From the IMG/VR virus record IMGVR_UViG_3300025018_000091: 64,000 bases of DNA. The stretch is one strand, 5' to 3'. This document shows, one piece after another, positions 22,563 to 60,654 of the stretch. Both the position numbers and the translations under genes were made by a program. Positions within the stretch are counted from its first letter, which is position 1. Each line of letters opens with the position of its first letter. The DNA is from a virus. Taxonomy: Duplodnaviria > Caudoviricetes. The notes below the pieces were generated by a model, which ran no database searches, was not told where the DNA came from, and saw nothing but the letters and a program-made list of their open reading frames with translations.

Positions 22563-23786
22563 TTACTCCAATACAAATATTAAGTTAACAGTTAAATCGT
22601 AATTCAATGATGTATAAGAATATCCCGTATTTGATATATCAATACGATCGCCTGGAAGAATTTCCGTTCTTAATGGATTTACATTATTATTTAATGATTC
22701 ATTATAATGACTTGTATTAAGTTCCATAGTTGATAGCAAAAAATCATTTCCATTTATTTGGATATTAATTCTTGGATAATAAGAACTATTAGCATATACA
22801 TTTTGAGATCTGATCTCACAATAAATTAATCTAGCTGTAGGACTTCCCCATCTTATTCCACTATACATTCCTAAAAAGGCTGATAAAATGCCAGCATCAG
22901 CGCCTGTGTGTCCTGATTCTGCATAAGCACCAGCTATAAAAATTGGCAAGAAGACTGTTCTAGTTGCTTGAGCATAATACACTTCAATTATATCACCAGC
23001 AACAGTACTTAAACTTGGTCCAGATACTTTAATACCCATGTCTCCAGGTGTATCATAATAATTCACAACAATATACCATTTAAAAAATTCTACAGTAAAT
23101 GTTTCAGTACCAAGTGGAGCGCTATTTACTCTTAATGTCCCAGTAATACCACTACCATTATCCCCAAGTATAGTTATATCCATGCCACCAGTATAACTAA
23201 ATTCTTCTGCATATAAAATTCTATTCGTTAATGCCGAATCATTATAACCGTCTAACATATATGTTGATCCAAGATTAACATATTTGAAATATATTTTTCC
23301 AGATTGGTCTAATAAACTGCCCGCTAATCCAACCAATGTATTATAACTATAAGAAATTCCAAAAGAAGTAGATGATGTAACGCCTTGTTTATCTAATACT
23401 CTTACAGCTATATTTTCTCTTAAATTGCGGCTTTGATTAGTTAATATAGTTAAATAATCAATATCTATAGCAGTAGTTTCAAAATCAGTATTGGCAATTA
23501 AAGGATTCCATTCAGGAGCACCAGTTGGACCAGCAGGACCAACAACCCCTGAATCTCCAGTAGCCCCAGTAGCCCCAGTAGCCCCAGTCGGACCTGTATC
23601 TCCATCAACACCATTAGTTCCTGCCGCCCCTGTAGCACCTGTTGGTCCTGTATCACCAGATAAACCTCTTTCACCTCTTGGTCCTTGGGTTCCAGTCGAA
23701 CCAGTAGCTCCAGTCGCTCCCCCTGCACTTGGAGTTACAGATGGAATACTTGTATTGTCATCAAAATCATATGGGTATTTTGTCAT
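22563..23786 (-). CDS. Collagen-like (G-X-Y) virion fibre protein
   Basis: About 20 G-X-Y triplets near the N-terminus, then a beta-rich body. Confidence 0.75.
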
Positions 23787-23818
23787 GTTAGTTACCTAAG
23801 ATGCATTCTCTATTAGAG

Positions 23819-23838
23819 TATACTAAACTTTTAGTATA
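23819..23838. promoter_or_regulatory. Palindromic site between divergent structural operons
   Basis: TATACTAAA-CT-TTTAGTATA, perfect 9-bp inverted repeat. Confidence 0.55.
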
Positions 23839-23854
23839 TTTACGAGGTTCTTAT

Positions 23855-24829
23855 ATGACAACCACCTATCCAGCAGCATTAGACACTAATACAACTTTAC
23901 CTAAAGTTACCGATAATTTAACTCCAGTTTCTGGATCTGTATATAATCGTTTACAAGAGGCAGTTATTAGAGTAGAATATGAATTAGGCGTTAAACCTAG
24001 CGGAACTTATTCAACCGTTCGAGCAAGATTAGATGCACTTGAAGGTATTCTTGCAAAACTAAATCTAAACCTTCAATTTGGTGGAGATATCGAAGCTCAA
24101 ACAGATCCTACTATTCAACATGTCATCGGTATTAGAGGCGAGACAATTTTAAATAATTTGTCAAAATCAGTTGGAGGATCATTAAGATGGGATGGTAGTT
24201 ATTGGAATCAGGTACAATTATATATGGACGATATATTACCTCCATTTTATGTAGAAATGAATGGACCTCCAATGCAAGAAGTAAATCAATGGCTATCATA
24301 TCCTACATTTTATGGCACATATAATTTTGAACCTCCCACTTCTATTACATTAACCGATACTGAAGGACACTCACAAATAATACCAATAGTTGATAGGGCT
24401 TTATTTTATAGTGATTATGAATTTCAAAAAACAGCATTTGATGGATACGTAACTTTTACATTAACAGCAGAACATCATCAAATAGAAAAAAGCTTTGACT
24501 ATACAGTATACTGGGGACAAAAACTTTTTTGGGGTGTTGGTCCTGCTGGTTATACTACAGCATCTGATATTACAACCAATTTAGATGGTTACGTTACAAA
24601 TAGTATTGCTTATAATTTTACTGCAACTGCAGGAGCATCTGAAAAAATCTATTTTGCATGTAGAACAGCATATGGCGCAGCAACTTTTTATGTTGGGGGA
24701 TTTGAAGGTGGGTTTACTTTAGTTAGCGATACAATCTCCATAACAAATGATTATGGATTTACTGAAAATTATGCGCTTTATGAAAGTGATAATCTTGGAT
24801 TAGGTACTACTACCGTTACAGTGAGCTAA
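23855..24829 (+). CDS. Putative virion structural protein
   Basis: Start MTTTYP at 23855 (GAGG RBS); N-terminal domain shared with 38068..39870. Confidence 0.7.
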
Positions 24830-24837
24830 AGGACAAT

Positions 24838-26043
24838 ATGACATCTAGATATTTAACTTGGACGGGATCAGACTGGGGCTTAGCTGAAAGCGGTGGCGGC
24901 GGTGGCGGAACTGGTACAATTGGACCTATTGGTCCTGCTGGTCCTACTGGAGCTACTGGTGCTACTGGAGCTACTGGAGCCGCTGGAGATACAGGCGCAA
25001 CTGGAGCCACTGGTGCTACTGGCGCTACTGGAGCTGCTGGTAGTATAGGATCAACAGGCGCTAGAGGTCCTACCGGAAATACTGGACCAACCGGACCAAC
25101 CGGACCAATTGTAGAACATAATTTATTAACATCAATACAAGGCGGTTCTGTAGCAGATGGATATTATCATTTAACTAATAGTGAACATGGCTGGTTAACA
25201 GATGGATATGTAGATGGATATTGGAATGTAGATAAAGGAGCAATTGGAATAACTGTTTATAATCCTGGAGATATAATTTATGCTAGTGCAGAAGATATAT
25301 TAAGTAAAATATCTATTGGCAATGAAGGCGAAACATTAATATCATCAGCAGGATTTCCAGTATGGGGATTTCCTACTCATAGTTTATTATCATCATTAGA
25401 GGGCGGTTCTGGAATTGATGGTTATTATCATTTAACCAACAATGAACACACTTGGTTAACAGCAGGTTATACTGCTGGTAAATGGGCTGAAAATAAAGGT
25501 GGAACAAACCAAACCACATATACTATTGGTGATTTATTATATGCCAGTGCATCTAATACATTAAGTAAATTATCAGCATCAATAGATGGTTATATTCTTA
25601 AACTAGCATCTGGAATTCCTTCATGGGATATCCATACAAATACATTAACTCAAGTAACTGTTGGAAAAGATGGTTATATTACACCTGCTTCTGATGGATA
25701 TCTAACATCTAAGTTTACAGAAGTTAATACAGAAGGATTCCCAGCATATGTGGCTAATACAACCTGCTACATTAAAAATTTTACAATTACAATGAGTGAT
25801 GTAATGTTAGCAGGACAAACAGTAGTTATTACAATAAGAAAAAACAATGTGGATACTATACTTACATTAACATTAGATAATGCAACTCCTTTGAATTCTG
25901 CGGTAACATTGCGAATAGAACAGGATATTACAAATTCTGTATCATTAGTTAATGGTGATAAAGTAACGGTTAAATATGTAGCATCTGGCACGGCTGATGC
26001 TCAAGATATTTTTGTTACTTTTGATATATTGAAGACAGTATAA
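24838..26043 (+). CDS. Collagen-like tail-fibre-type protein with an internal duplication
   Basis: G-X-Y run, then two copies of [22 protein letters not shown]...GD..YAS. Confidence 0.75.
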
Positions 26044-26056
26044 GGCTAATAATAAA

Positions 26057-26617
26057 ATGCCAATCAATCTAATCTCTAAAATAAAGTCAAAAAATGATGG
26101 GTCATTTCCTACTATTGAAGATGTAGATATATATGGCGGTTATCAAGTACGTAGTGATATTGCTGATCGTAATAGTATTCCTTCTTTAAATAGAAAAGAA
26201 GGAATGATGGTTTTTGTACAAGATGATAGCAAATATTATACTTTAAGTGGAGGCTTAACTGATGGATATTGGACAGAAATATCTTTTGGTGGCGGAAGCT
26301 CTATGGCATATGTATTAATAGAAGATGAAGATAGATTAGTTGAATCTGGAGTAAGTGAATTAATCGTATCGGCTAATACTGATTCTGTAACAAGGACTAT
26401 TACATTACCAGCTACGCCTACTGATGGTCAAGAAATAATAATAATACGTCAGGCAGAATATGCTAATGGCACGCTTATTATTGATCTAAATGATTCGTTA
26501 ATAGATTATATAATATCAAGTTGGGGATTTAATTCTTTTACTGATTCAGAATTACATTTGATATATTATGGAGATGTATGGTTACATATCTATAGCAGAA
26601 CTGAGTCTTATGGCTAA
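26057..26617 (+). CDS. Tandem paralogue 1 (conserved N-domain, variable C-domain), probable fibre/appendage
   Basis: MPINLISKIKSKNDG.FP..ED.D.YGGYQVRS...RKEGM...KYYTL.GG.T...W. Confidence 0.75.
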   Translation: MPINLISKIKSKNDGSFPTIEDVDIYGGYQVRSDIADRNSIPSLNRKEGMMVFVQDDSKYYTLSGGLTDGYWTEISFGGGSSMAYVLIEDEDRLVESGVSELIVSANTDSVTRTITLPATPTDGQEIIIIRQAEYANGTLIIDLNDSLIDYIISSWGFNSFTDSELHLIYYGDVWLHIYSRTESYG

Positions 26618-26632
26618 TATGTGGAGATTTAA

Positions 26633-27250
26633 ATGCCTATAAATATAATTTCATTATTGAAACCTAAAAATGATGGCGAATTTCCCATTGCTGAGGATGT
26701 TGATGGATATGGTGGATATCAGGTAAGATCAGATATTACAGATAGAAATCTTATACCAGAGTTAAACAGAATAGAGGGTATGTTAGTATATGTTCAATCA
26801 GATGCTAAATACTATACTTTATCTGGAGGAATAACTAATTCTGATTGGATAGAAGTAACTTTAGGGGGCGGTTCTACAACCACAAGAGAGATTGTTGTTT
26901 TAACTGAACCAACTACATATAATGTTCCCTCTGGAGTAAATCAATTTATTATTAATACATATGTACCAACTCTGGATGATCCTAGTGGAGTAGTAACTAC
27001 AGTTGCACTACCTAGTGATCCAACAGATTTGCAAGAAATTATAGTTAAAACTACAAATGCTTCTGGAAAAAATTATTGGGTTATTGATGTTAATGGTGGA
27101 ATCAATAATATTGACAATGGTAATGCTGATTTTGGAAGCCCATCTAATTCTTATCCATGGATTATATATAGTAATTATTGTTTAAAAATAAGGTGGACGG
27201 GATCAATATGGAGTGTTATCACATTTACATCTCTCACTATTCCAAAGTAA
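26633..27250 (+). CDS. Tandem paralogue 2
   Basis: Same N-terminal ~75 aa; divergent C-terminus with LPSDPTDLQEIIVK. Confidence 0.75.
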   Translation: MPINIISLLKPKNDGEFPIAEDVDGYGGYQVRSDITDRNLIPELNRIEGMLVYVQSDAKYYTLSGGITNSDWIEVTLGGGSTTTREIVVLTEPTTYNVPSGVNQFIINTYVPTLDDPSGVVTTVALPSDPTDLQEIIVKTTNASGKNYWVIDVNGGINNIDNGNADFGSPSNSYPWIIYSNYCLKIRWTGSIWSVITFTSLTIPK

Positions 27251-27263
27251 AATAGGACATTAA

Positions 27264-27845
27264 ATGCCAATCAATATAATATCTAAAATAAAGCCCAAAA
27301 ATGATGGTTTGTTTCCTACATTTGAAGATCGAGATATATTTGGTGGTTATCAAGTACGTAGTAATTCTACTGATCGCAATAATATACCAGCTTTAAATAG
27401 AAAAGAAGGCATGTTAGTTTACACACAAGATGATGATAAATATTATACTTTAAATGGTGGGCTAACTGATGGATATTGGACAGAAGTAGTATTTGGTGGC
27501 GGTGGTGGATCAGATTTTACATTAGTTCATACAGGTATAAGTTATCAAATAGTTGATACAACAAATCAGTTTATATCTGTAGAATCATTTTTAGGATTTG
27601 CTTTAACAATAACATTACCTTTAAATCCTGCTAATGGTCAAGAAGTCATTGTAAAAGATACTGATGGTGTTTGTAGTTCATTTTCTGAAATATCAATTGA
27701 AATATATGGTAATGGACATGATATAATTATTCCTTTTGAATATCGTTATTTGTGGAATGCATATGAATGCATTCATATTAAATATAATAGTACATTAGAT
27801 TTGTGGGGATTAGTAAGTGATTGGTATCCTATTATACAATCATAA
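27264..27845 (+). CDS. Tandem paralogue 3
   Basis: Same N-terminal ~75 aa; C-terminus with LPLNPANGQEVIVKD. Confidence 0.75.
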   Translation: MPINIISKIKPKNDGLFPTFEDRDIFGGYQVRSNSTDRNNIPALNRKEGMLVYTQDDDKYYTLNGGLTDGYWTEVVFGGGGGSDFTLVHTGISYQIVDTTNQFISVESFLGFALTITLPLNPANGQEVIVKDTDGVCSSFSEISIEIYGNGHDIIIPFEYRYLWNAYECIHIKYNSTLDLWGLVSDWYPIIQS

Positions 27846-28916
27846 TTCACAAAATTGTAGATTGTCTAATATTCTACTTTTTTCATTATCTGGCAACATA
27901 CCACTCTTTAATAATGCATTATTTAAAGTAGCTGCTTCTTGTTTTTTACCAATCCAATAAGCAGCAACAGCTAATTCATCTATAATCTTCCAATCATAAC
28001 AAGCCGTTTCTAAAAACAAAGCGTCCTTAGGTTTAGCTATATTACATCCAATCTTAGCATAAAAATATGACTTATGAAGTCTATCAAATCTTCTACAATA
28101 TGAACACAAATAAGACAACGCCTCAACTCTATTTGGTTGATAATTAAAAGCTTCTAGATAAGCGGATTCAATTCTTAATGCATCATGAGTATATAATGAT
28201 TCATGTAGCTTGGCTGCCTCTAATAATGATACATATATCTCTTCTATCCAGCCACCCATTTTACTGCGCTGTAGATACAATTTTAAAGATTCTTCCTTCT
28301 TTCCGGCGTCCCTGTAGCTCTGCGCCGCGTAGAAGACATAGCGGGAGTTATTTGGCTCGACAATCAATGCTTTATCGAACGTCATGGCATCCTTAAGATA
28401 CTTTTGAGGATCATTAGATCGAGACCCGTTAGCTCCAAATATAATCTTACATCCAACCAATGGTTTTGATACAATATTTATTGGCAATTCTAAATATTCA
28501 TGTAGAACACCAACATATTTAGATTTTAATTTACTACTAAATAATTGAGTTCTACTATATACAATTGGACCGTGATTAAACTCGATAGTATAAGCTGATT
28601 TTGTGAGGTTTTTAAATACATTGATATTATTTACAGCCAAATAGTCATCAGCATCCATAACTAATATATAATCTGCTTTTGGCTTTGCTAATTGTAATGC
28701 TTTATTTCTATTGGTAGAGAAGTCTTCCCATTCATGTTTATGAAGTTCACCGGGGATGTCTTTTAAACATTTTTGGATTACTTCTTCTGTGTTGTCTGTA
28801 GAGCCTGTGTCGCATATAATCCAATAGTCAATAAAAGGCTTAACAGAATTGAGGCACCTTTCAATACAGTGTGCCTCATTCTTAACAATCATAGATAAAC
28901 ATACCGTCATGTACAC
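27840..28916 (-). CDS. GT2 glycosyltransferase with TPR-like C-terminus
   Basis: CLSMIVKNEAHCIERCL, DTGSTD, DFSTNRN, MDADD; RYVFYAAQSYRD and R.EAL TPR-like helices. Confidence 0.9.
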   Translation of the reverse strand: MYMTVCLSMIVKNEAHCIERCLNSVKPFIDYWIICDTGSTDNTEEVIQKCLKDIPGELHKHEWEDFSTNRNKALQLAKPKADYILVMDADDYLAVNNINVFKNLTKSAYTIEFNHGPIVYSRTQLFSSKLKSKYVGVLHEYLELPINIVSKPLVGCKIIFGANGSRSNDPQKYLKDAMTFDKALIVEPNNSRYVFYAAQSYRDAGKKEESLKLYLQRSKMGGWIEEIYVSLLEAAKLHESLYTHDALRIESAYLEAFNYQPNRVEALSYLCSYCRRFDRLHKSYFYAKIGCNIAKPKDALFLETACYDWKIIDELAVAAYWIGKKQEAATLNNALLKSGMLPDNEKSRILDNLQFCEL

Positions 28917-28930
28917 TTATATATCAGACG

Positions 28931-29233
28931 TTATTCTTCCCACACACCAATAATAGTAATTCCTTCTACTGGATCTCCGCTAGGCGGTATTGGGCTTGGA
29001 GATCCAGTAGACGTCCATATTTCATAACTTAAAGTTACTGTATTCCAAGCTCTCATACGATAATGATATTGTGTTCCAATTGGTACAGCATAGAATTTCC
29101 AATTACCTTTTGCTCCAACATATTTAGTTCCGCTTGCAAATGGATCAGTAGGTATTGCCAATCCACCTCTAACTAAAGAGTAGTTTTCGCTATAAAAAGG
29201 TAACGAAAAATAATATCCATCTTCAGAAACCAT
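28931..29233 (-). CDS. Hypothetical protein
   Basis: Start MVSEDGY at 29233, coupled to the upstream stop; YRMRAWNT resembles YYMRAYNT at the start of 30194..32641. Confidence 0.65.
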   Translation of the reverse strand: MVSEDGYYFSLPFYSENYSLVRGGLAIPTDPFASGTKYVGAKGNWKFYAVPIGTQYHYRMRAWNTVTLSYEIWTSTGSPSPIPPSGDPVEGITIIGVWEE

Positions 29234-30189
29234 TATGCAGTCTCCGGTGCAGTTCCATTCCAAGGAAATATTATATGTCCAAATTGAACAAATTGATATG
29301 ATAAATCAGCAGGAAATGCAGTACCAACAGCTACTGCTGTACTTCCCCACCATAAATCATATATAGAACCTTTTCTTCCTCTATGAGTTCCCACTGTATT
29401 AAGAAGACCCATTGGCATAATTGGCCATTCTCCAGTATCATCATCTTGAGAAATTAAATATTCTCCAACCATTGATGTTAAAGCACCTTCACAAGTAACA
29501 TACATTCCTATTAAATCTCCAGAGACCTCTCCATATATAGTTGCTGTATCATTCCACCAAGCATATTGTGTCGCATTTGCATCGCCGGCGCGTGCGCCCC
29601 AAATACCAGTGGTAAAACCAGTAGTTGGACTACTCGGCATATCAAATAACCAAAATAATTGGCATACATTTGCTACTGTTGTTAATATGCGAGTACATTC
29701 ACCATCACTAGAGTGCATCACATGAAGTTTACCGGTATATACTGACGAATGAACAAAAGCTGCTGAATATACTTGGTGTTGGTCTCCTGCTGTTGGGGGT
29801 GATGCAGCAACACCATCTGTACCTGTACCACCAGAACCTATGGCTCCAAACTCACCATTTGGAGATACTATAATACGAACATAATTTGTTTGTGTATTAT
29901 TGTACATATAAAAACAAACTTGCATACTGGTAACTAAATTTTCTAATACAATCCATCGATTACCAGTACCTATTGCTGTAGTATCTGTCCAACGGTCAAC
30001 ACCATCATTATTTCCAACAAAATTTCCAGTAGCACTACTACCCCATACTACCCATGGATTAAGTACGAAATTTTTCATACTATTTTTAATGGCAAGTATT
30101 ATATTTCGTCCGGTATCGGTAGCTGCTGATCCACTAAATAATTGATTAACATCATATTGCCAAGTTTTTACTTTTGGAGGTAAAGCCAT
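29233..30189 (-). CDS. Hypothetical Gly/Thr-rich protein, probably structural
   Basis: 318-aa ORF in the structural operon. Confidence 0.7.
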   Translation of the reverse strand: MALPPKVKTWQYDVNQLFSGSAATDTGRNIILAIKNSMKNFVLNPWVVWGSSATGNFVGNNDGVDRWTDTTAIGTGNRWIVLENLVTSMQVCFYMYNNTQTNYVRIIVSPNGEFGAIGSGGTGTDGVAASPPTAGDQHQVYSAAFVHSSVYTGKLHVMHSSDGECTRILTTVANVCQLFWLFDMPSSPTTGFTTGIWGARAGDANATQYAWWNDTATIYGEVSGDLIGMYVTCEGALTSMVGEYLISQDDDTGEWPIMPMGLLNTVGTHRGRKGSIYDLWWGSTAVAVGTAFPADLSYQFVQFGHIIFPWNGTAPETA

Positions 30190-30193
30190 TTTA

Positions 30194-32641
30194 TTATCCT
30201 TCTATTATTATTTGTGCTGACTTACATGTTACAATATTCCCACCACCAGAATTTGCAATCCATAAACGAACTTCAAAAACTCCAACCACAGTTCCGGCAA
30301 AAGCAGCAGTAATATCTGTTTCAATCATACTTGGTATTAATTGACTGGATGCACCAGTATTATCAATTTGTGACCCAGATACTTGAGCAGTTCCACTAAT
30401 ATCATATAAATCTGCTGTTGCTGCATAAGTTGCAGTAGCATTTGTTGATTCTAATATACAACGAAATTTTACCGTTCTAGTTGTTGGCCATTGCGATGTA
30501 TCAACATAACAAGCGCCAATTGCAGTAGCAATTCCTGTAGAATCTGTAGCCAATCCCTTCAATAAATCCATTTCAATTGGGAAATTGCTACCGCTTGCAA
30601 CATTTGGAATCCAAGCGGGGACTCCAGATGCTAAAGCTAATACATAGCCATCATCTGATGCTGGTAATGCTGCTAAAATATTAGTATTGGAAGCATATAA
30701 TATATCTCCAACATTATAAGATGTTAATCCCGTTCCACCTTGAGCTGTGTGCCAATAACCATCTAAATAATTATCACTAAGGGCATTTAACATAGCTGCT
30801 GTAACATAGCCATCAACATGTGAGCCATCAATAGCGAAATTATTTGCGGAAGTAACAGAACCGCCAGGTAAATCTATATATGCACCATTCTCAGCCTTTA
30901 AGTAAGGCTCGGCACCCATTAGATTAACATATAGTTTCTGAAGACCATCAAAATAAATATGTTCAGCTTGGTTATTATTATCAAATACTATATTATCATA
31001 ACCATCAGTTCCAATCAGATGAATATCATTACTATTAGCTGCATTTCTAGCACTTAATGCAGTTAAATTATTTGGAACTCTTAATACACCAGATTGTGCG
31101 GGTGCAAGTCCAATATCAAAATAAGCGCCATTAATATCTACATTAAAATTTCCATATGATACTAATCCATATTGAAATACTATCGCTCCGCTTTGATTAC
31201 TTGGAATTCCAGCACCAGATGATAGATATAAATTTCCACCATAACCAGAAGATAATGAACTTCCAGCAATTATTGATAATACGCCACCATAGCCAACACT
31301 AGCATTACCAGCATATATTGATAACGCTCCACCGTTACCAATATTTACAGAATCTCCTGCGGCTATATTAAAAGAACCACCATCAGCCCCAATACCATTA
31401 GCATCTTGTGCATTAATTGTTAATAGTTGCCCTGAACCAGATGTTTGTAATACTTGTGAAATAACGGGGGTTACAGTATCTTTATCAAAAGTTAGATTAG
31501 ATGTATAAAATAATGTGCTAGTATCAAGTATGTGTATCTTAGGGTTAATGCCATTTTTAATTTGAACATAACCATCAGCAGTAGTTCCGCTTCCAGATCC
31601 AAGAATTAATGCTCCGCCAGTAGATCCACCAAAAGATGAAGTTTGCGCCAGTATTGTTAATGTTTGACCATTTCCAGTAGCCTGTGTTGTTTGGAAAATA
31701 CTTGGATTATTTACATCTTCATGAAATCTAACAAAACTTAGTCCAACTTCTAATTGTGGAATATCATTTACTTCGAAGGAATGAATATATCCATCTCCGA
31801 CATTGTGAGTAATACCTTCATTGGATAAATCACCAATAAGAATAAGATCTCCAAGAGTTTCTATTAGATTAAGGTTTCCAGAATCAAGATCATTTCTTAC
31901 ATGAATTCCTTCTGTATTTTGTAATCTAATAAATCCAGTAGTTGACGCGCCTGTTAATCCATGAGATATACTATCTTCAACTAACAAATCATTAGCAATA
32001 TACACCGAAGTAGTATTAGATCCTAATTGAACTCTATCAAATATATCTACTTGAAGAATATCTACATCTCCAGTATTTGTAGCATTTCTACCTCTAACAA
32101 CAGCATCTTCTGTAGCAACATTTGGAATACGAATAATGCCAGATTGCGCAGGATATGTTCCTAATGCCAAATACCCATCAATAGATAATGTTCCAGTAAA
32201 AATAGGTAAAGAAGCGCCAATAGTATAACCATCTCCACCAGTATTATATGCAAATTTCCAACCAGAAAGAGTTTCATCCCAAAACATACAAGAATGATCT
32301 CTAGGGATAAGACCTGTAGTATATCCTCTAACAGCGGCTAAACCTGTAATTTGTGGCGGAACATCTTGCGTTGTCGCATATGGCGAAGTTGGTGGATGTA
32401 TCCAGTCATAACTATTTAAATGGAAAAAATAACCATCACTAGAATTAAGTGGTTTTAAAAAATTATCTATTTTAGATTGAACTATTCTATTAACTATTAT
32501 ATTTTCAAGATTAATAGAACTATAGCCGTCAGGACAATATATTGCATTTGAATCTGGTTGATCGTTAACAATCCAATCAACGTAACCAACAGCACCTGGC
32601 GCTGCTGTATTATAAGCTCTCATGTAATATTGTATTGGCAT
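30194..32641 (-). CDS. Large fibre-like structural protein
   Basis: 815 aa, Gly-rich beta repeats (GGxLxIxAG); GGTGLTSYNVGDILYAS module shared with 24838..26043; 10 DGY. Confidence 0.7.
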   Translation of the reverse strand: MPIQYYMRAYNTAAPGAVGYVDWIVNDQPDSNAIYCPDGYSSINLENIIVNRIVQSKIDNFLKPLNSSDGYFFHLNSYDWIHPPTSPYATTQDVPPQITGLAAVRGYTTGLIPRDHSCMFWDETLSGWKFAYNTGGDGYTIGASLPIFTGTLSIDGYLALGTYPAQSGIIRIPNVATEDAVVRGRNATNTGDVDILQVDIFDRVQLGSNTTSVYIANDLLVEDSISHGLTGASTTGFIRLQNTEGIHVRNDLDSGNLNLIETLGDLILIGDLSNEGITHNVGDGYIHSFEVNDIPQLEVGLSFVRFHEDVNNPSIFQTTQATGNGQTLTILAQTSSFGGSTGGALILGSGSGTTADGYVQIKNGINPKIHILDTSTLFYTSNLTFDKDTVTPVISQVLQTSGSGQLLTINAQDANGIGADGGSFNIAAGDSVNIGNGGALSIYAGNASVGYGGVLSIIAGSSLSSGYGGNLYLSSGAGIPSNQSGAIVFQYGLVSYGNFNVDINGAYFDIGLAPAQSGVLRVPNNLTALSARNAANSNDIHLIGTDGYDNIVFDNNNQAEHIYFDGLQKLYVNLMGAEPYLKAENGAYIDLPGGSVTSANNFAIDGSHVDGYVTAAMLNALSDNYLDGYWHTAQGGTGLTSYNVGDILYASNTNILAALPASDDGYVLALASGVPAWIPNVASGSNFPIEMDLLKGLATDSTGIATAIGACYVDTSQWPTTRTVKFRCILESTNATATYAATADLYDISGTAQVSGSQIDNTGASSQLIPSMIETDITAAFAGTVVGVFEVRLWIANSGGGNIVTCKSAQIIIEG

Positions 32642-32698
32642 TATCTCTCCCTATCCAAGATATCTATTTATTACTAAATACAGATATAACATCAATAT

Positions 32699-33391
32699 TT
32701 AGATAGCGATTACATGAATTGTTACAACTGCTGTTCTAACTTCAGCATTATCGTATGTTACAGTTACAGTTAAATCATATGATCCACCATTTAAACTAAC
32801 AAAACCATCACCTTCCCAAGTATCACCAGTTTGTGTATATAATTGAGAATCTCCACCATCTAAATTACCAGAAAATAACACAACATGTTCACCACTTTCA
32901 ATAGTTCCATAAGCATAAAAAGGAGCGGTTGGATTATACGATGGAGATTCGTCTGTGGGATCAGTTATTGTAATTCCCATCAAATATGTAAACCCAGTAT
33001 TCTCTACTTGGTAAATTGTACTAAATGTTGAAAGCCTAAATGTATCTGTGCTCGTTTGATTCGCCACAAATACAACATCATATCCATCAGTCGATATGCT
33101 AATTGTCATTTCCGTCAATATACCAGAAGCGTTATAAATAGAACCATACCCGTCCAAACCAAGTCCACCAGCAATATAAGCATTTCCAATTTCTCTTACA
33201 ACTAAAGCGTCCAACCAATAAGAATATCCATCAGAAGCTGTTGATTGATTTTGAATAAAACATAACGTATTAATTCTTGTATCTGTATTTGCCGGAACAG
33301 TAAACCTACAGACTTCAACACCATGTGTCGAGGTCACAACCGTTCCTGTAATTAATCTTCCATTTTGTATTGCATATCCATCATTAGGCAT
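32699..33391 (-). CDS. Structural protein sharing its N-domain with the LamG proteins
   Basis: G...TGTV.T..HGVEVC.F.VP.NT..R. Confidence 0.65.
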   Translation of the reverse strand: MPNDGYAIQNGRLITGTVVTSTHGVEVCRFTVPANTDTRINTLCFIQNQSTASDGYSYWLDALVVREIGNAYIAGGLGLDGYGSIYNASGILTEMTISISTDGYDVVFVANQTSTDTFRLSTFSTIYQVENTGFTYLMGITITDPTDESPSYNPTAPFYAYGTIESGEHVVLFSGNLDGGDSQLYTQTGDTWEGDGFVSLNGGSYDLTVTVTYDNAEVRTAVVTIHVIAI

Positions 33392-33403
33392 AATATCCTC
33401 TTA

Positions 33404-35872
33404 TCAGGGTGGAGTGTCTTTTATAATATCAGCTTCTTCCATATTTGTCATTGTTCCGTTGAAGCCAACCCCATCTCCCATCTTCCAATATCCTACAAGG
33501 TTTGCTGAACTCGTTAAGTCTGTTGGTATTCCTGCGTTGTATATTGCTTCAACTTCTGATAAGGAAAGAACTTTATCCCAAATTGATATGTCTTTTAAAT
33601 TTCCAATCCAATAATTTTGATTATCAGGTCTTCTTCCAATATTAAAATTAGCCGCATTGGATATTGATAATGTTAAAGTATCGTGTCCTACGGTTGCTGG
33701 AACTAAAACTCCATTCATATAGAATATAACACCAGCTCCTGTTTTGCTTCCATCATAAGTAACAACACCATGTCTCCAAACACTATCTCTGTAACTTCCA
33801 AATCCTGTTGTTGTATTTGTAAAAATATAATTGTTTCCCGCCCCAGCGTCATTTATTAAGTATACTTGAATTCTATGTAAAGAATCAATAAATATAAAAT
33901 ACCCAGTGTATGTAGTACTACCTAAATTTTTTGCTATAATATTAGTATTTGTTCCACCTGTACATTTGAACCAAAAGGACCAAGAACGAGTTTCCGTTCC
34001 GTTTAAATCATGAACATCTCCCATGTCAATAAATTCGTCGGAGCCATCAAATACCATAGAGTTTCCAATATATGTTCTTGACTCAACGTCAGTGATTTCC
34101 ATATTGACCTGAGTTCCATGCAGTCCGTTGCCCGAGAAGTCAGGAACTCCATTTGCTGCAAGACTATAATTTTCTCCACACCTCCACCAAGCCGCAAGAT
34201 TAGCTGCGCAAGATGTTGTAGTTAAATCAATCGGAACCTTATTGTTATAAATTTCTGTTACTTCAGTTGGAGAAAGCTCTTTATCCCATACCGATACGTC
34301 AGAAAGAGAACCTTTATACCATAAATCATTATGATTTCTTGCCCCTAACCTAAAATCACTGGCATTTGCTGCTGTTGCCGATAACGTATCATAATTTGTA
34401 GTTGTTGCAACTGGAGCATTATCTATATAAAAAACAACACCTGCTGCTTTTCCTGTAGAATCTTTTGTTATCATACAATAATGCCAATTATTATCATTGT
34501 ATGAATTATTAGTTTGTATTTCAAGAGTATTTGTAAAATATGTATTTATTTGAAAAAAAGCTATTTTATTAGTATTCGTACAAAGTATTTGATATCCGGG
34601 GGCGCCAGCCGCTACACTAATTTTTGATACAAAAATCCCAGTATGTGTGATTGACCATTTAAACCAAAAACTAATAGAAAAAGCATCGTTATAATCAAAA
34701 TCTAATATATCTCCCATATTTACATATTCGTTTGTTCCACCAAACACTAAAGCTTGACTTCCAGGACTCGCAAACTGAATATCAGAAACTTCCATGTTAG
34801 TTGCTGTTCCATCATATCCATTTGTTGATTCATCAGGAATTACAGGAAACTGATAATCTGAACTATGATCTAAAATAGTTGGATATGTATCTCCATCTCC
34901 ACATCTCCAATAAGCTACCATATTAGAGGCTGATGAAAGGTTCTTTATGTTAGTTGGAATCCCTGAATTATAAATAGCTTCAACTTCAGAAAGAGAAAGC
35001 TCTTTATTATATATAGATGCTTCATCTATGTTACCAATCATATAATCAAGAGTTCCATTCATAGAACCAATGGTGCAAGGCATCGTATCTTGAATAGTTG
35101 ATGTTAAATTATTAATATTTGTAACAGGAGCTTCATATCCCCCGTCAACATAAAAAGCCGTTCCAGAAACATTACTACTTCCATCATAAGTAGCAACAAT
35201 ATGATGCCAATTTCCATCATTCAAAATAGAAGATGTGCTTACTGATAACTGACTTGTATTTGCTACGCTTACAATATCAAATCTAATTGATCCAATAACT
35301 CCCCCAAGTCCTTCTTTTTTCAAACCCCATCCTCTATAATTTCCAGCTGGACCTTCCTTACCAATAAAAAAATTCCAAGGGTTTACATCCGATGTTTTAA
35401 ACCAACAACTAATACTAAAAGCATCAGTCCTCTCAAAACTTAACACATTTCCCATTGTTACAAATTCATTAGTTCCACCAAACAACAAAGAATATCCATC
35501 AATAAATTGTTCAACAGAATAAATTTCCATCGAACATGCTACTCTATATATATTCCCATCCGCCGAAGCTGTTGTGGCATAAATATTATCATTCGTAACA
35601 GCTAAAATTACTTCAAAACCTGATGTTGTTCCTTCTTCATTATACTTAGATACATCTCCAACAATCGTTGCATATCCATCTTGATTATATACATTTGCTG
35701 CTAATTTATAAGAACTGCTTATTTGTCCGTTTACTTTTTGAAATAAACATGTTGCTTCTACCCTTGCAAAAGTTTCCAGTGGAACCGCCCAAGAGCATAC
35801 ATTTACTCCATTAGCTGCCGTTGCAACTGTTCCGGTAGTTTTAATTCCTTGTATTAATTGTCCATCAGCCAT
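33404..35872 (-). CDS. Multi-LamG/ConA-domain protein (three lectin-like domains)
   Basis: Three repeats of FGGTNE.V.MG...FSIS.WFK...NWH......G.IDE.SIYNKELS..EV..IYN. Confidence 0.85.
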   Translation of the reverse strand: MADGQLIQGIKTTGTVATAANGVNVCSWAVPLETFARVEATCLFQKVNGQISSSYKLAANVYNQDGYATIVGDVSKYNEEGTTSGFEVILAVTNDNIYATTASADGNIYRVACSMEIYSVEQFIDGYSLLFGGTNEFVTMGNVLSFERTDAFSISCWFKTSDVNPWNFFIGKEGPAGNYRGWGLKKEGLGGVIGSIRFDIVSVANTSQLSVSTSSILNDGNWHHIVATYDGSSNVSGTAFYVDGGYEAPVTNINNLTSTIQDTMPCTIGSMNGTLDYMIGNIDEASIYNKELSLSEVEAIYNSGIPTNIKNLSSASNMVAYWRCGDGDTYPTILDHSSDYQFPVIPDESTNGYDGTATNMEVSDIQFASPGSQALVFGGTNEYVNMGDILDFDYNDAFSISFWFKWSITHTGIFVSKISVAAGAPGYQILCTNTNKIAFFQINTYFTNTLEIQTNNSYNDNNWHYCMITKDSTGKAAGVVFYIDNAPVATTTNYDTLSATAANASDFRLGARNHNDLWYKGSLSDVSVWDKELSPTEVTEIYNNKVPIDLTTTSCAANLAAWWRCGENYSLAANGVPDFSGNGLHGTQVNMEITDVESRTYIGNSMVFDGSDEFIDMGDVHDLNGTETRSWSFWFKCTGGTNTNIIAKNLGSTTYTGYFIFIDSLHRIQVYLINDAGAGNNYIFTNTTTGFGSYRDSVWRHGVVTYDGSKTGAGVIFYMNGVLVPATVGHDTLTLSISNAANFNIGRRPDNQNYWIGNLKDISIWDKVLSLSEVEAIYNAGIPTDLTSSANLVGYWKMGDGVGFNGTMTNMEEADIIKDTPP
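34862..35032. repeat. 171-bp direct repeat, copy A (about 89% identical to 35953..36123)
   Basis: Manual alignment: 18 mismatches in 171 nt, no gaps. Confidence 0.8.
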
Positions 35873-35883
35873 ATTAATCCTTA

Positions 35884-36960
35884 TTACGGAGGTGCATCAG
35901 CAATTATATCTCCAGATTCCATATTAGTCATTGTTCCATTGAAACCAGAATCACTATGATCTAAAATAGTTGGATAAGTGTCTCCATCTCCACATCTCCA
36001 ATAAGCTACCATATTTGAAGCAGATGAAAGATTTTTTAGATTAGTTGGAATCCCTGAATTATAAATCGCTTCAACCTCAGGAAGAGAAAGTTCTTTATTG
36101 TATACTGATGTTTCGTCTATGTTGCCTTCAAATGCATAACCAGTGCCATCCCATTGACCAATTCTAAATGGAGCAGTTGTAATAATAGAGCCTGTTAAAG
36201 TATTTTTCCATATTGTAAGGTCAACAATTTCACCATCAATATAAATATGCATGCCAGATACAAGTGATGATCCATCATAGGTACATATACAATGATGCCA
36301 ATTACCATTATTTATTGTTGCTGTAGTTGTAAAAACCTGAAACTCATTAGTTGATGATGTATTTGATAATAAGAAAGTAATAGCTCCAGTATAAGTACCA
36401 CCATTGAGATATACAGCATAGCCTGCATATGGTGCCGTGCCAGAATTTTTAGCAATAAGAAACTTATCATTTGTAGTTGTTTTACACCACAAACTTATAG
36501 AAAAAGCATCAGTTCTCTCAAAATTCAACACATTTCCCATATTCACATATTCGTTCGTTCCTCCAAACAGCAAAGAATAATAGTTCCCAAATTGTTCAAC
36601 AACATAAATTTCCATAAAACATGTAACTCTATATTCTTCTCCATCTGTTGTTGCCGTTATAACTGATAACGTAGATCCACTTGCAAATAATGTTACAGTC
36701 ATTGCAACAGAACTCTCTTCCGTATTTACAACAGTCGGTCCTGAAACAATTGAAACATCCGCATCGTCTCTTCTAACAGTCGCTATTAATTTATATGAAC
36801 TTTTAGCCGTATTATCGTAAACTTGTTGAACAGTACAATGAACTTCAACCCTTGCAGTAGTATTTATTGGAATACTCCATACACAAACCTCAACACCATT
36901 TGAAGATGTTTGTATACTTCCTGCTGTTTTTCTTCCTAAAATTATATCTCCATCAGCCAT
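35884..36960 (-). CDS. Single-LamG-domain paralogue
   Basis: Same N-domain (MADG...) and LamG pattern as 33404..35872. Confidence 0.85.
   Translation of the reverse strand: MADGDIILGRKTAGSIQTSSNGVEVCVWSIPINTTARVEVHCTVQQVYDNTAKSSYKLIATVRRDDADVSIVSGPTVVNTEESSVAMTVTLFASGSTLSVITATTDGEEYRVTCFMEIYVVEQFGNYYSLLFGGTNEYVNMGNVLNFERTDAFSISLWCKTTTNDKFLIAKNSGTAPYAGYAVYLNGGTYTGAITFLLSNTSSTNEFQVFTTTATINNGNWHHCICTYDGSSLVSGMHIYIDGEIVDLTIWKNTLTGSIITTAPFRIGQWDGTGYAFEGNIDETSVYNKELSLPEVEAIYNSGIPTNLKNLSSASNMVAYWRCGDGDTYPTILDHSDSGFNGTMTNMESGDIIADAPP
35953..36123. repeat. 171-bp direct repeat, copy B
   Basis: See copy A. Confidence 0.8.
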
Positions 36961-36974
36961 GATTAATTACCTTA

Positions 36975-38063
36975 TTATGCTGGCGCAATGTCAGTTACTG
37001 TTCCACTACTTCCTTTAAATTTTAATGCACCACCCTCAACAAATAAATAACCGCCAGAAGTCGCACTGCCTGTTGGAACTGCATCTACATCTTTAATAAA
37101 AATCGCTCCCTGAGCACCTTGCATATTTGTTCCATTAGCACCATTTATAATTAAGTTACCCATATTGGAATTGCCTGCTTTAAGATAAATATTACCAGCA
37201 GTAAGTCCGTCACCACTCCAAATCAAAATATCACCACCAGCATAAGTATTGGTATAGTCTGATTGTCCAAAAACAATTAATCTTATTCCATTATGAGAAG
37301 ATGAAGGAGCAATTCCAAATACTGGAAGAGGAAAATCTGATTCAATTAATAAATATCCGTCACATATTACAGATGAACCTCCAAATGGTGTTGGAGATGC
37401 ACTAGTAAAAAATATCGGTGCAGTAGCTAAATATAATGTTGTTGGATAAGTATCCCCAGGACCAGCAGGACCTGTAGCTCCTGTAACACCAGCTACTCCT
37501 GTAGGACCAGCTGTTCCTGTAGCTCCTTGAGGTCCCGTTGCGCCTTGAGGTCCAGTAGCTCCAGCTACCCCAGTAGGACCGGCTGTTCCTGTAGCTCCTT
37601 GTGGTCCTGTAACTCCAGCAGGACCAGTAGCTCCAGCAGGACCAGTAGCTCCTGTAGCACCATCAACTCCAGCAGGACCAGTAGCTCCTGTAGCACCATC
37701 AACTCCAGCAGGACCAGTAGCTCCTGTAACTCCAGCAGGACCAGTAGGACCACCATAAGGACCTGTAGCACCTTGTGGTCCAGTAACTCCATCTATTCCA
37801 GCAGAACCGGCAGGTCCAGTAGGACCAGCAGGACCTGTCATTCCAATTCCAGCCGGTCCAGTTGGACCAGCAGCACCAGTAGGTCCAGCAATACCGGCAG
37901 GACCAGCAGGACCAGTTGCTCCAGCGGGACCAGGAGAACCAGTTGGTCCAAAAGATGGACTGCGAGGATCCCAACGTTCTGCAGCTGCATTATAAGCTAA
38001 GATGTATCCATCAGCAGGAACTTCAAAGGAGCCAATAATTGTTTTGTTTTTAGTATTAGCCAT
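36975..38063 (-). CDS. Collagen-like protein with a long G-X-Y tract
   Basis: About 160 aa of GPAG/GATG triplets flanked by globular ends. Confidence 0.85.
37639..37728. repeat. 36-bp tandem repeat (2.5 copies) in the collagen tract
   Basis: GGACCAGTAGCTCCTGTAGCACCATCAACTCCAGCA at 37639 and 37675, partial third copy. Confidence 0.85.
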
Positions 38064-38067
38064 TTAT

Positions 38068-39870
38068 TTATAACCTCGAAAGCTCTCTCCACTCAATAGT
38101 AGCTGAAGCCCTTCTATCATCTGTACCATATGAGTCTACTTGAATTATTAATTCGGAACCAGATGTATCAACAGTAACCGACCAATTGGTTCCGTTATCA
38201 TCTATTAAGTCATCATTAAGAATATCTATTACTAATACTCCACTCTCCTGATGTGCTAAAGCATTATACTTAAATCTTGCACAAGTTGATGCTCCAGTAG
38301 TATTTACAACAATTATTCTAATGTTAATGTCATAAGATTTTCCATCTTCCATTTCTATATTATTTAGTGTGCCAGGTATTGTCAAGTTAAATTGACCACC
38401 ATTTACTTGGTAACCATCTAATAATATTCTTGAGAATTGAGAATCTCCTGGATTTGTAAAGTAATTTACAGCATGAGATTTTTGTCCTATAATTCTTGCA
38501 TCAGCAGCATAACCAAAAACTGCACAATGTATTGCAGAAGTTGTATTGCCATATCCTTCAGCACGAGAATAATTACCAGTAACAATATTAGAATCACCAT
38601 TAATAAATACACCATTAGAATTTGATGTATTATTTTGACCAGCAATTAAAGAGTGCTGAGAACTAATAATATTGCTAGATCCTAATAATACAAGACTATT
38701 AGTTCCAGTTATGCTATTTAACATTCCATTAATAACAGTAGAATAATTTCCTGATACTGTATTTGATAATCCATTTAATATAGTAGATTCGTTTCCAGTA
38801 GCTTGGTTTCCGTAACCATCAGCAACAAAGGAAGAATCTCCTTGGGCTCTATTTCCAGAACCACCTAAAATTACAGACAAATACCCATCAGCTAAATTGG
38901 TATTACCACCAAGAACTGATGAATAATATCCGTCAGCAGTATTACTTAACCCGCCACCAATCATTGTATATTGTTGTGTAGCAGAGTTTGAGCTACCACC
39001 TAAAATTGATGAATATATAGCAGAGGCAGTATTGTCTAAGCCGCCACCTATAATAGAATAATTTGCGGTTACTTGATTTCTGTATCCACCAACTGAGGTA
39101 GAATAATCGCCAGTTACACCAATTGATAAATTACTACTTGCTAAATTAACAATACCAACTTTAGTATTATCTATTGTTGATTGATTAATTGGTCTATTGG
39201 CTACAATATTTTGCGACTCATAAATAGGGTCAAAAACAACCGGTAATCTTGTAGGATACCAAGTTCCAGACCTATATAATAAGGCATATCCATCTATTGG
39301 AGTTGATGAAGATATTGGAACTCCTTGAATTCCTATAACTGTTTGATTTATCTTTGTACCAGATAGATCTCCAGAGGCATAGAAACCAATTTGAGATTCC
39401 CAATAACCATCTGTATCATTCCAAGTAAGATGATATCCATCTAAGGGCATTGTCGATACTAATGGTCTATCTTGTAAACCAATTACAGTCTGGCTGTAAT
39501 ATCCTCCTGACAGATCTCCCCCTGCTAACCAAAGATCGGTAGGTATAAGTTGCCATGCACCATCTCTTCTTTCATATAGACCTTCATAGACATATCCGTC
39601 ACGTCTTAGGTAAAGAGAGCCATCAACTCTATCTTCTGTTGGATATCCATCACCAACACTAATAGAAACACCGCCATATCCATCAACATAAAATGGATTG
39701 GTTACGTTAGGAGCTGGTGCATTAGGGTTATTTATTCTTGCCTCAAGAATATCCAAACGTACCCTAACATCAGCATAAACTCCATATGGAGTAATACCAA
39801 GAGCCCTCTCTATCGCTTCTACTGCATCAGTTAATGCACTAATTGCTGCTGCTTTATCATCAATAACCAT
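38068..39870 (-). CDS. Fibre/adhesin-like structural protein with Gly-rich beta-roll repeats
   Basis: Repeats of type S.I.GG..N.A...YS; GDLSG...QTVIGLQ repeats; 10 DGY. Confidence 0.75.
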   Translation of the reverse strand: MVIDDKAAAISALTDAVEAIERALGITPYGVYADVRVRLDILEARINNPNAPAPNVTNPFYVDGYGGVSISVGDGYPTEDRVDGSLYLRRDGYVYEGLYERRDGAWQLIPTDLWLAGGDLSGGYYSQTVIGLQDRPLVSTMPLDGYHLTWNDTDGYWESQIGFYASGDLSGTKINQTVIGIQGVPISSSTPIDGYALLYRSGTWYPTRLPVVFDPIYESQNIVANRPINQSTIDNTKVGIVNLASSNLSIGVTGDYSTSVGGYRNQVTANYSIIGGGLDNTASAIYSSILGGSSNSATQQYTMIGGGLSNTADGYYSSVLGGNTNLADGYLSVILGGSGNRAQGDSSFVADGYGNQATGNESTILNGLSNTVSGNYSTVINGMLNSITGTNSLVLLGSSNIISSQHSLIAGQNNTSNSNGVFINGDSNIVTGNYSRAEGYGNTTSAIHCAVFGYAADARIIGQKSHAVNYFTNPGDSQFSRILLDGYQVNGGQFNLTIPGTLNNIEMEDGKSYDINIRIIVVNTTGASTCARFKYNALAHQESGVLVIDILNDDLIDDNGTNWSVTVDTSGSELIIQVDSYGTDDRRASATIEWRELSRL

Positions 39871-40930: not shown

Positions 40931-41087
40931 ATAATAACTCTTTAAATTCTTCAGGAGATAATTCTACTGCATTTGTAATTTTCTTGAGTGGATTTTCATG
41001 ATCTTTAGCTTGAATTATTATTAAGATTTTTCCACCCTCTATCTTTTTTGCTTCTATAAAAGATTTATCTGTAAATTGAATTTTCAT
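40920..41087 (-). CDS. Small hypothetical protein (55 aa)
   Basis: Below the track cutoff; MKIQFTDKSFIEAKK...KELLFDI, ATGA-coupled to map. Confidence 0.65.
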   Translation of the reverse strand: MKIQFTDKSFIEAKKIEGGKILIIIQAKDHENPLKKITNAVELSPEEFKELLFDI

Positions 41088-56922: not shown

Positions 56923-57051
56923 TTATCTCAAATTATTTAACAACTCCGACCACTCTCTTCTAGTTAAAGGTACTTGTAAATTTTCTTTAAAGTTTTGGAT
57001 ATTTACTGGAAAATCATCAAATCTTTTATTTACTTGTTTTATATCATTCAT
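56923..57051 (-). CDS. Small hypothetical protein (42 aa)
   Basis: Below the cutoff; MNDIKQVNKRFDDF...WSELLNNLR, start overlaps the endonuclease stop. Confidence 0.5.
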   Translation of the reverse strand: MNDIKQVNKRFDDFPVNIQNFKENLQVPLTRREWSELLNNLR

Positions 57052-58701: not shown

Positions 58702-58704
58702 AAC

Positions 58705-59532: not shown

Positions 59533-59541
59533 ATTCTACCT

Positions 59542-60549: not shown

Positions 60550-60597
60550 GATAACCTTAGAGGTATATAATTCCTGTACACCTCCACCTATACCAAA

Positions 60598-60654
60598 TCA
60601 TTTCATCCATTTATTTACAAAAATATCTCTGGCTGATTTATACAATTGGTAACT
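60598..60654 (-). pseudogene. Stranded C-terminal fragment of the 61594..62280 glycosyltransferase
   Basis: Frame reads SYQLYKSARDIFVNKWMK-stop, matching TYKLYKNARSIFIKKWEK. Confidence 0.78.

Follow-up and report, generated by a model that had tools for sequence, protein, structure and literature searches.

The DNA analysed here, a 64,000-nt stretch of the IMG/VR virus record IMGVR_UViG_3300025018_000091 (the window), carries at positions 22563-39870 the gene module for the tail fibres and tailspikes of a huge phage of myovirus type. The proteins of this block carry one short motif, the tripeptide Asp-Gly-Tyr (DGY), about 20 times as often as chance would predict. In this article we describe where the motif lies, how it is distributed among related phages and which partner may recognize it. 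The gene set comprises the 74 open reading frames (ORFs) of at least 80 amino acids (aa) in the window, 15 of which (5707 aa) make up the block. Elsewhere the window carries genes for replication, nucleotide metabolism, lysis, a tubulin and homing endonucleases, and the within-window contrast is therefore one between fibre proteins and non-structural proteins.

Read from its right end, the block opens with a tailspike-like fibre protein of 600 aa (38068-39870, minus strand; 10 DGY), consisting of an N-terminal adaptor, two DGY-bearing hairpins and a beta-roll/beta-helix. It matches the Pfam beta-roll LbR_Ice_bind, and its best matches among PDB folds are phage tailspikes (e.g. AM24, APK09 and Kp9 gp42). 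Next on the same strand come a collagen-like tail-fibre protein of 362 aa (36975-38063; 2 DGY; Pfam Collagen, E = 2e-21; phrog_6320 tail fiber, E = 2e-51), a 358-aa fibre protein with a ConA-like (Laminin_G_3) distal domain (35884-36960; no DGY), an 822-aa fibre protein with three Laminin_G_3 domains (33404-35872; 2 DGY), a 230-aa protein of no known family in Pfam or PHROGs (32699-33391; 4 DGY) and an 815-aa fibre protein of no known family, whose 10 DGY stand in ten differing contexts (30194-32641). Two small ORFs of 318 aa (no DGY) and 110 aa (1 DGY), at 28931-30189, lie between the 815-aa fibre gene and a gene for a family 2 glycosyltransferase with tetratricopeptide repeats (GT2-TPR; 27840-28916; no DGY), a predicted protein glycosyltransferase resembling SunS, ThuS and GmaR, which closes this minus-strand fibre operon. 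The plus strand encodes three paralogous small virion proteins of 186, 205 and 193 aa (26057-27845; 1 DGY each; PHROG tail/virion structural families 23630, 25379 and 24134), a collagen-like tail-fibre protein of 401 aa (24838-26043; 7 DGY) and a fibre-associated protein of 342 aa (23801-24829; 2 DGY). A last collagen-like tail-fibre protein of 407 aa is encoded on the minus strand (22563-23786; 1 DGY). The Pfam Collagen model is matched above its cut-off by the proteins starting at 22563, 24838 and 36975 and below it by a fourth collagen-like protein at 39957; all four match PHROG tail-fibre families.

DGY occurs 42 times in the 15 ORFs of the block (10, 10, 7 and 4 in the four richest, 0-2 elsewhere) and 4 times in the other 59 ORFs of the window. 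Composition alone predicts 2.0 occurrences in the block; 5000 per-protein shuffles gave a mean of 2.0 and a maximum of 9, and a first-order Markov model, which absorbs the excess of the dipeptides DG and GY, predicts 9.3 (Poisson p = 4e-15). No other tripeptide of the block is as over-represented, the margin being about 27 orders of magnitude in Poisson p. The motif is also strict. The near-variants DGF, NGY, EGY, SGY and DSY occur once each in the block, and DAY and DGW do not occur; Y follows 42 of the 80 DG dipeptides, and D precedes 42 of the 64 GY dipeptides. When sites sharing at least seven identities among their 20 flanking residues are merged, four of the 42 drop out and 38 independent contexts are left, so the enrichment is not an effect of internal repeats. 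The initial annotation had counted 42 DGY in the block and about 4 elsewhere, expected only a few from composition and judged that internal repeats were not the sole source; our counts, ORF by ORF, shuffles and merging bear it out on each point, and the comparison across related phages that it had called for shows the enrichment in all six related genomes described below.

The signal belongs to the protein rather than to the DNA. Every one of the 46 GAYGGNTAY nonamers on both strands of the window is an in-frame, sense-strand DGY, and the DGY codons of the block (GAT in 36 of 42; GGA in 23 and GGT in 13; TAT in 37 of 42) match bulk usage, which together point to selection on the protein. Of the four DGY outside the block, three fall within ORFs of homing endonucleases (two GIY-YIG, one zinc-finger; 57044-57778, 17499-18215 and 60638-61618) that interrupt or flank transferase genes. 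The two GIY-YIG sites may be explained by an (N/D)GYN-type motif that is conserved in that domain.

To place the motif in a wider setting, DGY was counted genome-wide in seven whole IMG/VR records (labelled G001-G005, G010 and G011) and in the cultured Tunturiibacter phage Tunturi_5. Six records are related to the window and all are enriched: G004 (88 observed against 16.2 expected, ratio 5.4), G001 (73 against 15.6, 4.7), G011 (73 against 17.4, 4.2), G005 (81 against 20.9, 3.9), G010 (58 against 17.8, 3.3) and G002 (44 against 17.8, 2.5). Two unrelated jumbo phages give 11 against 8.4 (G003, 198 kb, ratio 1.3) and 19 against 11.9 (Tunturi_5). The 648 proteins of G005 include 194-278 in common with each of G001, G002, G010 and G011 and 7 with G003; G004 was left out of this comparison, and its proteins are 52-82% identical to those of the window (82% for the 342-aa fibre-associated protein). 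Coding density in the related genomes is 0.85-0.92 under table 11.

Within each related genome, the DGY that occur several to a protein are mostly found in 7-18 tail/fibre proteins, which hold 22-70 of the genome's total. They comprise the fibres and the tail sheath, conserved giant proteins (of roughly 1340, 2380 and 1960 aa) and one protein of some 530 aa. G001 (locus L004) and G002 (L014), which are DGY-poor at the fibre locus, are still enriched in these core tail proteins, and the difference is one of degree; for this reason a comparison of gene content between supposedly DGY-poor and DGY-rich genomes was dropped. DGY enrichment is confined to fibre-type structural and outer tail proteins and is specific to one clade. 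The density itself can go higher than usual: in IMGVR_UViG_3300041432_000006 (L302/L216) and at L232, two or three giant tail proteins carry 23-29 DGY in about 3300-4400 aa, or 6.5-7.8 per 1000 aa, about twice the usual clade density. INPHARED phage records hold no match for the 20-kb block, the 815-aa fibre, the 600-aa fibre or a 2387-aa tail protein, and the search turned up no cultured phage belonging to the DGY clade.

The genes of the block differ in how widely they are shared. The 815-aa fibre has homologues in G004, G001 and G005, and the 318-aa ORF has one in G004; neither the 110-aa ORF nor the 230-aa protein at 32699-33391 has a homologue in any of the six related genomes. The same is true of the two Laminin_G_3 fibres (33404-36960, minus strand), in which the distal domains lack DGY and the N-terminal adaptor parts carry it (both DGY of the 822-aa protein fall within its first 125 residues). 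The Laminin_G_3 domains may be recent imports that have not so far acquired the motif.

The 600-aa fibre provides the richest view of how the motif evolves. It has 718 homologues, many of them on 200-510 kb contigs of huge phages, and the best 120 of these contain 1101 DGY where 22 would be expected, but hardly any DGF or NGY. When 115 of those 120 are aligned, the motif begins at 89 different columns. R-DGY at 91 and P-x-DGY at 144 scarcely vary and a third site, at 193, is frequent; most other columns are sporadic, DGY standing where other sequences have SGN, NGN or TGN at beta-roll corners. A given DGY is kept intact in a fraction 0.34, 0.68 and 0.83 of cases at 30-45%, 45-60% and 60-90% pair identity, against 0.10, 0.22 and 0.44 expected from the D, G and Y residues outside motifs in the same bands. 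That is, the comparison indicates that the tripeptide is conserved or lost as one unit. No longer consensus emerges from the flanks of 267 non-redundant sites, where the preferences are weak: W, V, H and G tend to follow the Tyr, K, R, E and P are depleted, the residue before the Asp is mildly enriched in the beta-formers Y, T, I and V, and Asp and Asn are depleted at the two preceding positions, with no enrichment of acidic residues. The initial annotation had offered a calcium-binding turn as one explanation, and these flanks, devoid of extra acidic ligands and depleted in Asp just upstream, speak against it. Calcium-binding turns (DxDxDG, or the RTX repeat GGxGxD) place several acidic/Asn ligands at fixed spacing, which DGY flanks do not have.

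In an AlphaFold2 (AF2) model of the 600-aa fibre (mean predicted local distance difference test score, pLDDT, of 68; 80-94 in the beta-roll), D-G occupies two-residue turns and the Tyr opens the next strand at sites 144, 154, 313, 328 and 351. The columns of motif Tyr, in sequences without the motif, are 62% polar and 5% Phe; the columns of other Tyr are 42% hydrophobic and 18% Phe, the commonest replacement. Substitution pattern and model together suggest that DGY sits at exposed positions. The motif can also be dispensed with. A hairpin of the window that reads L-DGY-HLTWNDT-DGY-W appears as NVNDVVSWDGTQW or NANEVLTWDGSQW in relatives with few fibre DGY (P0036, L003 and L004), and since homologous hairpins are built without DGY in some relatives, the motif is not a folding requirement.

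Two groups of transferase genes have to be considered as possible partners of the motif. The first is the GT2-TPR gene within the block. Its product matches Pfam Glycos_transf_2 (PF00535, E = 3.6e-13) and, over its full length, phrog_13126; the nearest PDB sequences are GmaR, SunS and ThuS. The best NCBIfam match is the SunS family TIGR04195 at 61.3 bits, far under the cut-off of 350, and the protein is a relative of SunS in architecture, not a SunS orthologue. The AF2 model (pLDDT 91) has a GT-A strand/helix pattern over residues 1-155 and ten helices forming helical repeats over 164-349. Its top Foldseek matches are SunS and ThuS along the whole length (365-372 columns, template modelling (TM) score 0.62-0.64), followed by the TPR domains of OGT and GmaR, and the motif D80-A-D82-D83 (DADD) is invariant in 20 homologues. 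GmaR transfers N-acetylglucosamine to Listeria flagellin, a substrate for which its TPR domain is the proposed binding site (PMC9638930). Given the whole-length fold match to SunS/ThuS and the function of GmaR, the GT2-TPR protein is very probably a protein glycosyltransferase. Its gene adjoins fibre genes in four distant phages: the window, G004, G010 and Tunturi_5. In the last of these (a cultured acidobacterial phage of 309 kb, PP885688.1), gp35, a homologue of 40% identity, lies beside the tail-fibre genes gp28-gp33. The same region of Tunturi_5 (L251, 19995-30066, gp28-gp35) also holds four paralogues of about 285 aa; the phage is unrelated to the DGY clade.

The second group is a sugar cassette at 57745-63722 (minus strand; Pfam and NCBIfam assignments), which encodes an RmlB-like dTDP-glucose (deoxythymidine diphosphate glucose) 4,6-dehydratase, a GT2, a 335-aa protein, a second GT2 split by an endonuclease gene and a family 4 glycosyltransferase (GT4). 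The initial annotation had announced rfbB and further glycosyltransferases for 57.7-63.7 kb, where an RmlB-like gene and three transferase genes are indeed present. The RmlB-like gene (57745-58701) matches TIGR01181 over its full length at 357.1 bits, against an equivalog cut-off of 365.1. The 335-aa protein (59542-60549, minus strand) has no Pfam, NCBIfam or PDB match; copies in all six related genomes are 39-65% identical to that of the window, and it may be an undescribed component of the sugar pathway or of a transferase. Outside the cassette, a GT-B transferase of the MJ1255/VC2487 family (16525-17511, minus strand; NCBIfam TIGR00661, E = 6.5e-10) is present in 6/6 clade genomes and near the fibre block in 5/6.

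All six related genomes have the cassette in syntenic position, next to the giant tail proteins; G002 lacks both GT2 genes, and the GT4, the RmlB-like gene and the 335-aa protein, like the GT-B, occur in all six. Two wider sets of loci were assembled, one of 58 distinct loci around the GT4, the other of 57 usable loci around the 1340-aa tail protein. Among the 57 loci listed, the GT4 gene (62595-63722 in the window) lies directly downstream of the gene for the 1340-aa protein wherever the sequence reaches far enough, and it is the sole transferase always found beside the clade's giant DGY-rich tail proteins. DGY is enriched in all loci (0.8-7.8 per 1000 aa against about 0.2 expected) whatever the content of the cassette, so the two GT2 genes, the RmlB-like gene and the 335-aa protein are not required for it. 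In the first set, loci without the two cassette GT2 genes (GT2a and GT2N) seemed to carry about 30% fewer DGY; the hint was gone in the second (L305, L290), and the two enzymes were rejected as readers of the motif. As to its make-up, the cassette is modular. Both GT2 genes have been lost in several lineages that keep the GT4, the 335-aa protein and the RmlB-like gene, and more distant lineages have the GT4 and two GT2 genes with neither the RmlB-like gene nor the 335-aa protein (loci G002 358574-364393 (L048-L049), L174, L175, L177, L210 and L215).

How, then, can the motif be explained? A motif that is strict, apparently exposed, conserved as a unit, specific to a clade, confined to the outer tail and not needed for the fold shows the pattern expected when a specific partner reads it. 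We tentatively propose that DGY is a recognition tag, most likely read by a phage glycosyltransferase that acts on the Tyr, a proposal to which we give somewhat less than an even chance. The motif would be a mark on the outer tail, read by a partner common to the clade. In the fuller version, DGY would be a three-residue sequon, the hydroxyl of its Tyr would be modified by a phage glycosyltransferase in the cytoplasm, before or during tail assembly, and a sugar coat over the whole outer tail would result. Two transferase candidates remain for this step: the GT4 (62595-63722), which is always linked to the giant tail proteins, and the GT-B (16525-17511), which all six clade genomes have. Stated with all of these particulars, cytoplasmic Tyr O-glycosylation by the GT4 or the GT-B is rather unlikely. 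A literature search on DGY in phage tails returned no description of the motif.

Several points weigh against a glycosyltransferase as the reader. The GT4 is universal, and with no natural case lacking it, its linkage to DGY-rich proteins is uninformative. The density of DGY in the same tail proteins varies about 8-fold, from 0.8 to 6.5 per 1000 aa, and bears no relation to cassette content; for example, L290 has all of the transferases and 4 DGY, and L305 has neither GT2 gene and 23 DGY. The cassette enzymes could also act elsewhere, for instance on the host envelope or on DNA. We know of no enzyme that reads D-G-Y, and the acceptors of SunS, ThuS and GmaR are Cys, Ser or Thr rather than Tyr. 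The exposure of the sites is judged from substitution patterns and from the secondary structure of a monomer model. Finally, D-G is a favoured beta-turn and DGY is found at hairpin turns, which makes a structural contribution possible.

That last point leads to a structural or assembly role, which we also regard as on the unlikely side. Here DGY would be a D-G type I' turn with the Tyr as a hairpin clamp, or a code for a fibre-assembly chaperone, serving as the clade's standard nucleator of beta-hairpins and solenoid corners in trimeric fibres. The placement of D-G and Tyr in the AF2 model fits this, as do the mild preferences for Y, T, I and V before the Asp and for W and V after the Tyr. In addition, R-DGY at 91 and DGYPT at 74 are invariant even where the fibres carry few DGY, and sites 313 and 328 are spaced by exactly one 15-residue coil. 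However, N-G is generally regarded as a better type I' turn than D-G, and NGY is nearly absent (1 in the block); DGF occurs once and DGW never, though Phe is the commonest substitute of other Tyr. Homologous hairpins and solenoid corners exist without DGY, and beta-roll fibres of unrelated phages are not enriched (1 DGY against 0.85 expected for L021 in G003, none in the Tunturi_5 fibres). With NGY and DGF missing, and no enrichment in unrelated phages with similar folds, a generic turn preference is a poor fit.

If the motif is read by a partner, that partner need not be a glycosyltransferase of the phage. It could instead be a decoration or cement protein that docks on the tail, a host enzyme, or an enzyme carrying out a different modification of Tyr or Asp. 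A strict motif, conserved as a unit and apparently exposed, would suit such a reader equally, and no transferase whose presence varies among the genomes tracks DGY. Yet no gene presents itself for the role: searches for a sulfotransferase (PF13469), a GT8 (PF01501) and a 2-oxoglutarate (2OG) oxygenase (PF13640) found none in five genomes that are 97-100% complete, with one weak 2OG match under the cut-off. We consider this explanation distinctly improbable.

A little more doubtful again is the idea that the motif acts by itself, its exposed Asp and Tyr forming many weak sugar- or surface-binding patches by which the tail adheres to host polysaccharide. DGY is indeed limited to outward-facing tail/fibre proteins, the Tyr hydroxyl is apparently required, the sites are numerous and movable, and the 600-aa protein has a tailspike-like fold of the polysaccharide-binding kind. 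On the other hand, a fixed Gly between Asp and Tyr is unexpected for a generic sugar-binding pair, the dedicated lectin-like Laminin_G_3 distal domains carry no DGY, and the sheath bears the motif as well.

The enzyme nearest at hand, the block's own GT2-TPR, is a highly improbable reader. Its SunS/ThuS/GmaR-type architecture and its place beside fibre genes in four phages speak for it, and the initial annotation had linked it to DGY. Gene and motif, however, dissociate both ways. GT2-TPR has no copy in G001, G002, G005 or G011, among which G001, G005 and G011 are DGY-rich (3.9-4.7 times expectation; G005 and G011 are complete) and G002 more weakly enriched (2.5 times). Conversely, Tunturi_5 has the gene right beside its fibres, which hold no DGY in about 3500 aa, in a genome that is not enriched. 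The link does not survive this check. Prediction of a complex between GT2-TPR and a segment of the 600-aa fibre (residues 60-210) yielded no support, a result that weighs neither way. The enzyme probably acts on the neighbouring fibre proteins at some other acceptor. What stands of the virion glycosylation system suggested at the outset is its gene set and a transferase of the SunS/ThuS/GmaR type, which keep it a fair candidate; what falls is GT2-TPR as the partner of DGY.

Virtually no weight is left for an artefact, whether of biased composition, of internal repeats, of a motif in the DNA itself or of the wrong genetic code. Gly, Asp and Tyr are abundant in the fibre proteins, but neither shuffles (maximum 9) nor the Markov model (9.3) approach 42, 38 of the 42 contexts are independent, DGY is never out of frame or antisense, codon usage is ordinary and coding density in the related genomes is 0.85-0.92 under table 11.

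Other genes close to the block are also shared within the clade. A type-I methionine-aminopeptidase-like gene (Peptidase_M24, 266 aa; 41084-41884, minus strand) is kept in 6/6 clade genomes; in the window, at L001 and in several other relatives its place is just upstream of the fibre block. A 403-aa flavin adenine dinucleotide (FAD)-dependent oxidoreductase (19361-20572, minus strand) occurs in 6/6 related genomes, in five of which it is found, with the MJ1255-family GT-B, close to the fibre genes. A role for this oxidoreductase as a Tyr hydroxylase or halogenase was considered and is unsupported: its matches are at the Rossmann level only, it has no PDB relative and its look-alikes are unnamed FAD-dependent proteins. 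A 221-aa ORF (20612-21277, minus strand) is present in four related genomes (G004, G001, G005 and G011).

A strict tripeptide that exceeds chance 20- to 50-fold on outer tail proteins throughout a clade of huge phages implies a reader or a chemistry that has not been described. The negative results narrow the search for it, as GT2-TPR and the two cassette GT2 enzymes are out and two universal transferases or a host factor remain. If DGY is a modification sequon, it would show how giant phages dress their tails, possibly for shielding, host recognition or stability in groundwater, and it could provide biotechnology with a minimal tag for site-specific protein modification. Should the Tyr prove to be O-glycosylated in the cytoplasm by the GT4 or the GT-B, the sequon would be new, as would the acceptor chemistry for soluble bacterial-type transferases, and the whole would amount to a virion-wide glycosylation code. 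Independently of DGY, GT2-TPR stands out as a predicted fibre-associated protein glycosyltransferase, and Tunturi_5 offers a cultured, tractable system in which to learn the targets of this family.

It is useful to set these findings beside known systems. The closest to GT2-TPR are SunS/ThuS (PDB 7MSN and 7MSK) and GmaR, which likewise combine an N-terminal GT-A (GT2) domain containing a DxD motif with a TPR-like helical domain, and which glycosylate peptides or a filament protein in the cytoplasm. In contrast to them, GT2-TPR shares only 18-23% sequence identity with these enzymes, has no glycocin-like precursor gene nearby and no antirepressor domain, and its gene does not co-occur with DGY.

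For the motif itself, the nearest comparison is sequon-directed glycosylation, exemplified by N-X-S/T, by the D-S/T-A/I/L/V/M/T sequon of periplasmic O-glycosylation in Bacteroidota and by the cytoplasmic HMW1C/NGT-type enzymes. As in those systems, a strict three-residue motif is spread over many unrelated surface proteins, its sites are gained and lost freely, and transferase genes adjoin the genes of the substrates. The over-representation typical of sequons on their substrates is found here clade-wide, and in the window as 42 in the fibre block against 4 in the other 59 ORFs. With regard to co-occurrence with a transferase, GT2-TPR, GT2a and GT2N do not co-vary with the motif, and the GT4 and the GT-B are universal. 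DGY differs from known sequons in its putative acceptor, a Tyr (conceivably the Asp), with a Gly before the Tyr; to our knowledge, no sequon of the DGY type with a Tyr or Asp acceptor has been described. The compartment differs as well, since Bacteroidota O-glycosylation is periplasmic and phage tail proteins are made in the cytoplasm.

Virion glycosylation by phages has its own precedent. Mycobacteriophage-encoded glycosyltransferases are said, in work by Freeman and colleagues from 2023, to O-glycosylate Ser/Thr-rich C-terminal extensions of capsid and tail-tube subunits. There too, phage transferases lie beside structural genes and are proposed to decorate the virion surface. Unlike in mycobacteriophages, the candidate mark of the DGY phages would be a strict tripeptide within the chains of the fibres, the sheath and the giant tail proteins. 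Bacterial S-layer proteins, finally, offer a parallel for the acceptor. Their Tyr O-glycosylation proceeds via lipid-linked glycans and an extracytoplasmic oligosaccharyltransferase, and we know of no DGY consensus for it. The likeness to the putative DGY mark lies in the use of Tyr as the O-glycan acceptor on a self-assembling bacterial surface protein.

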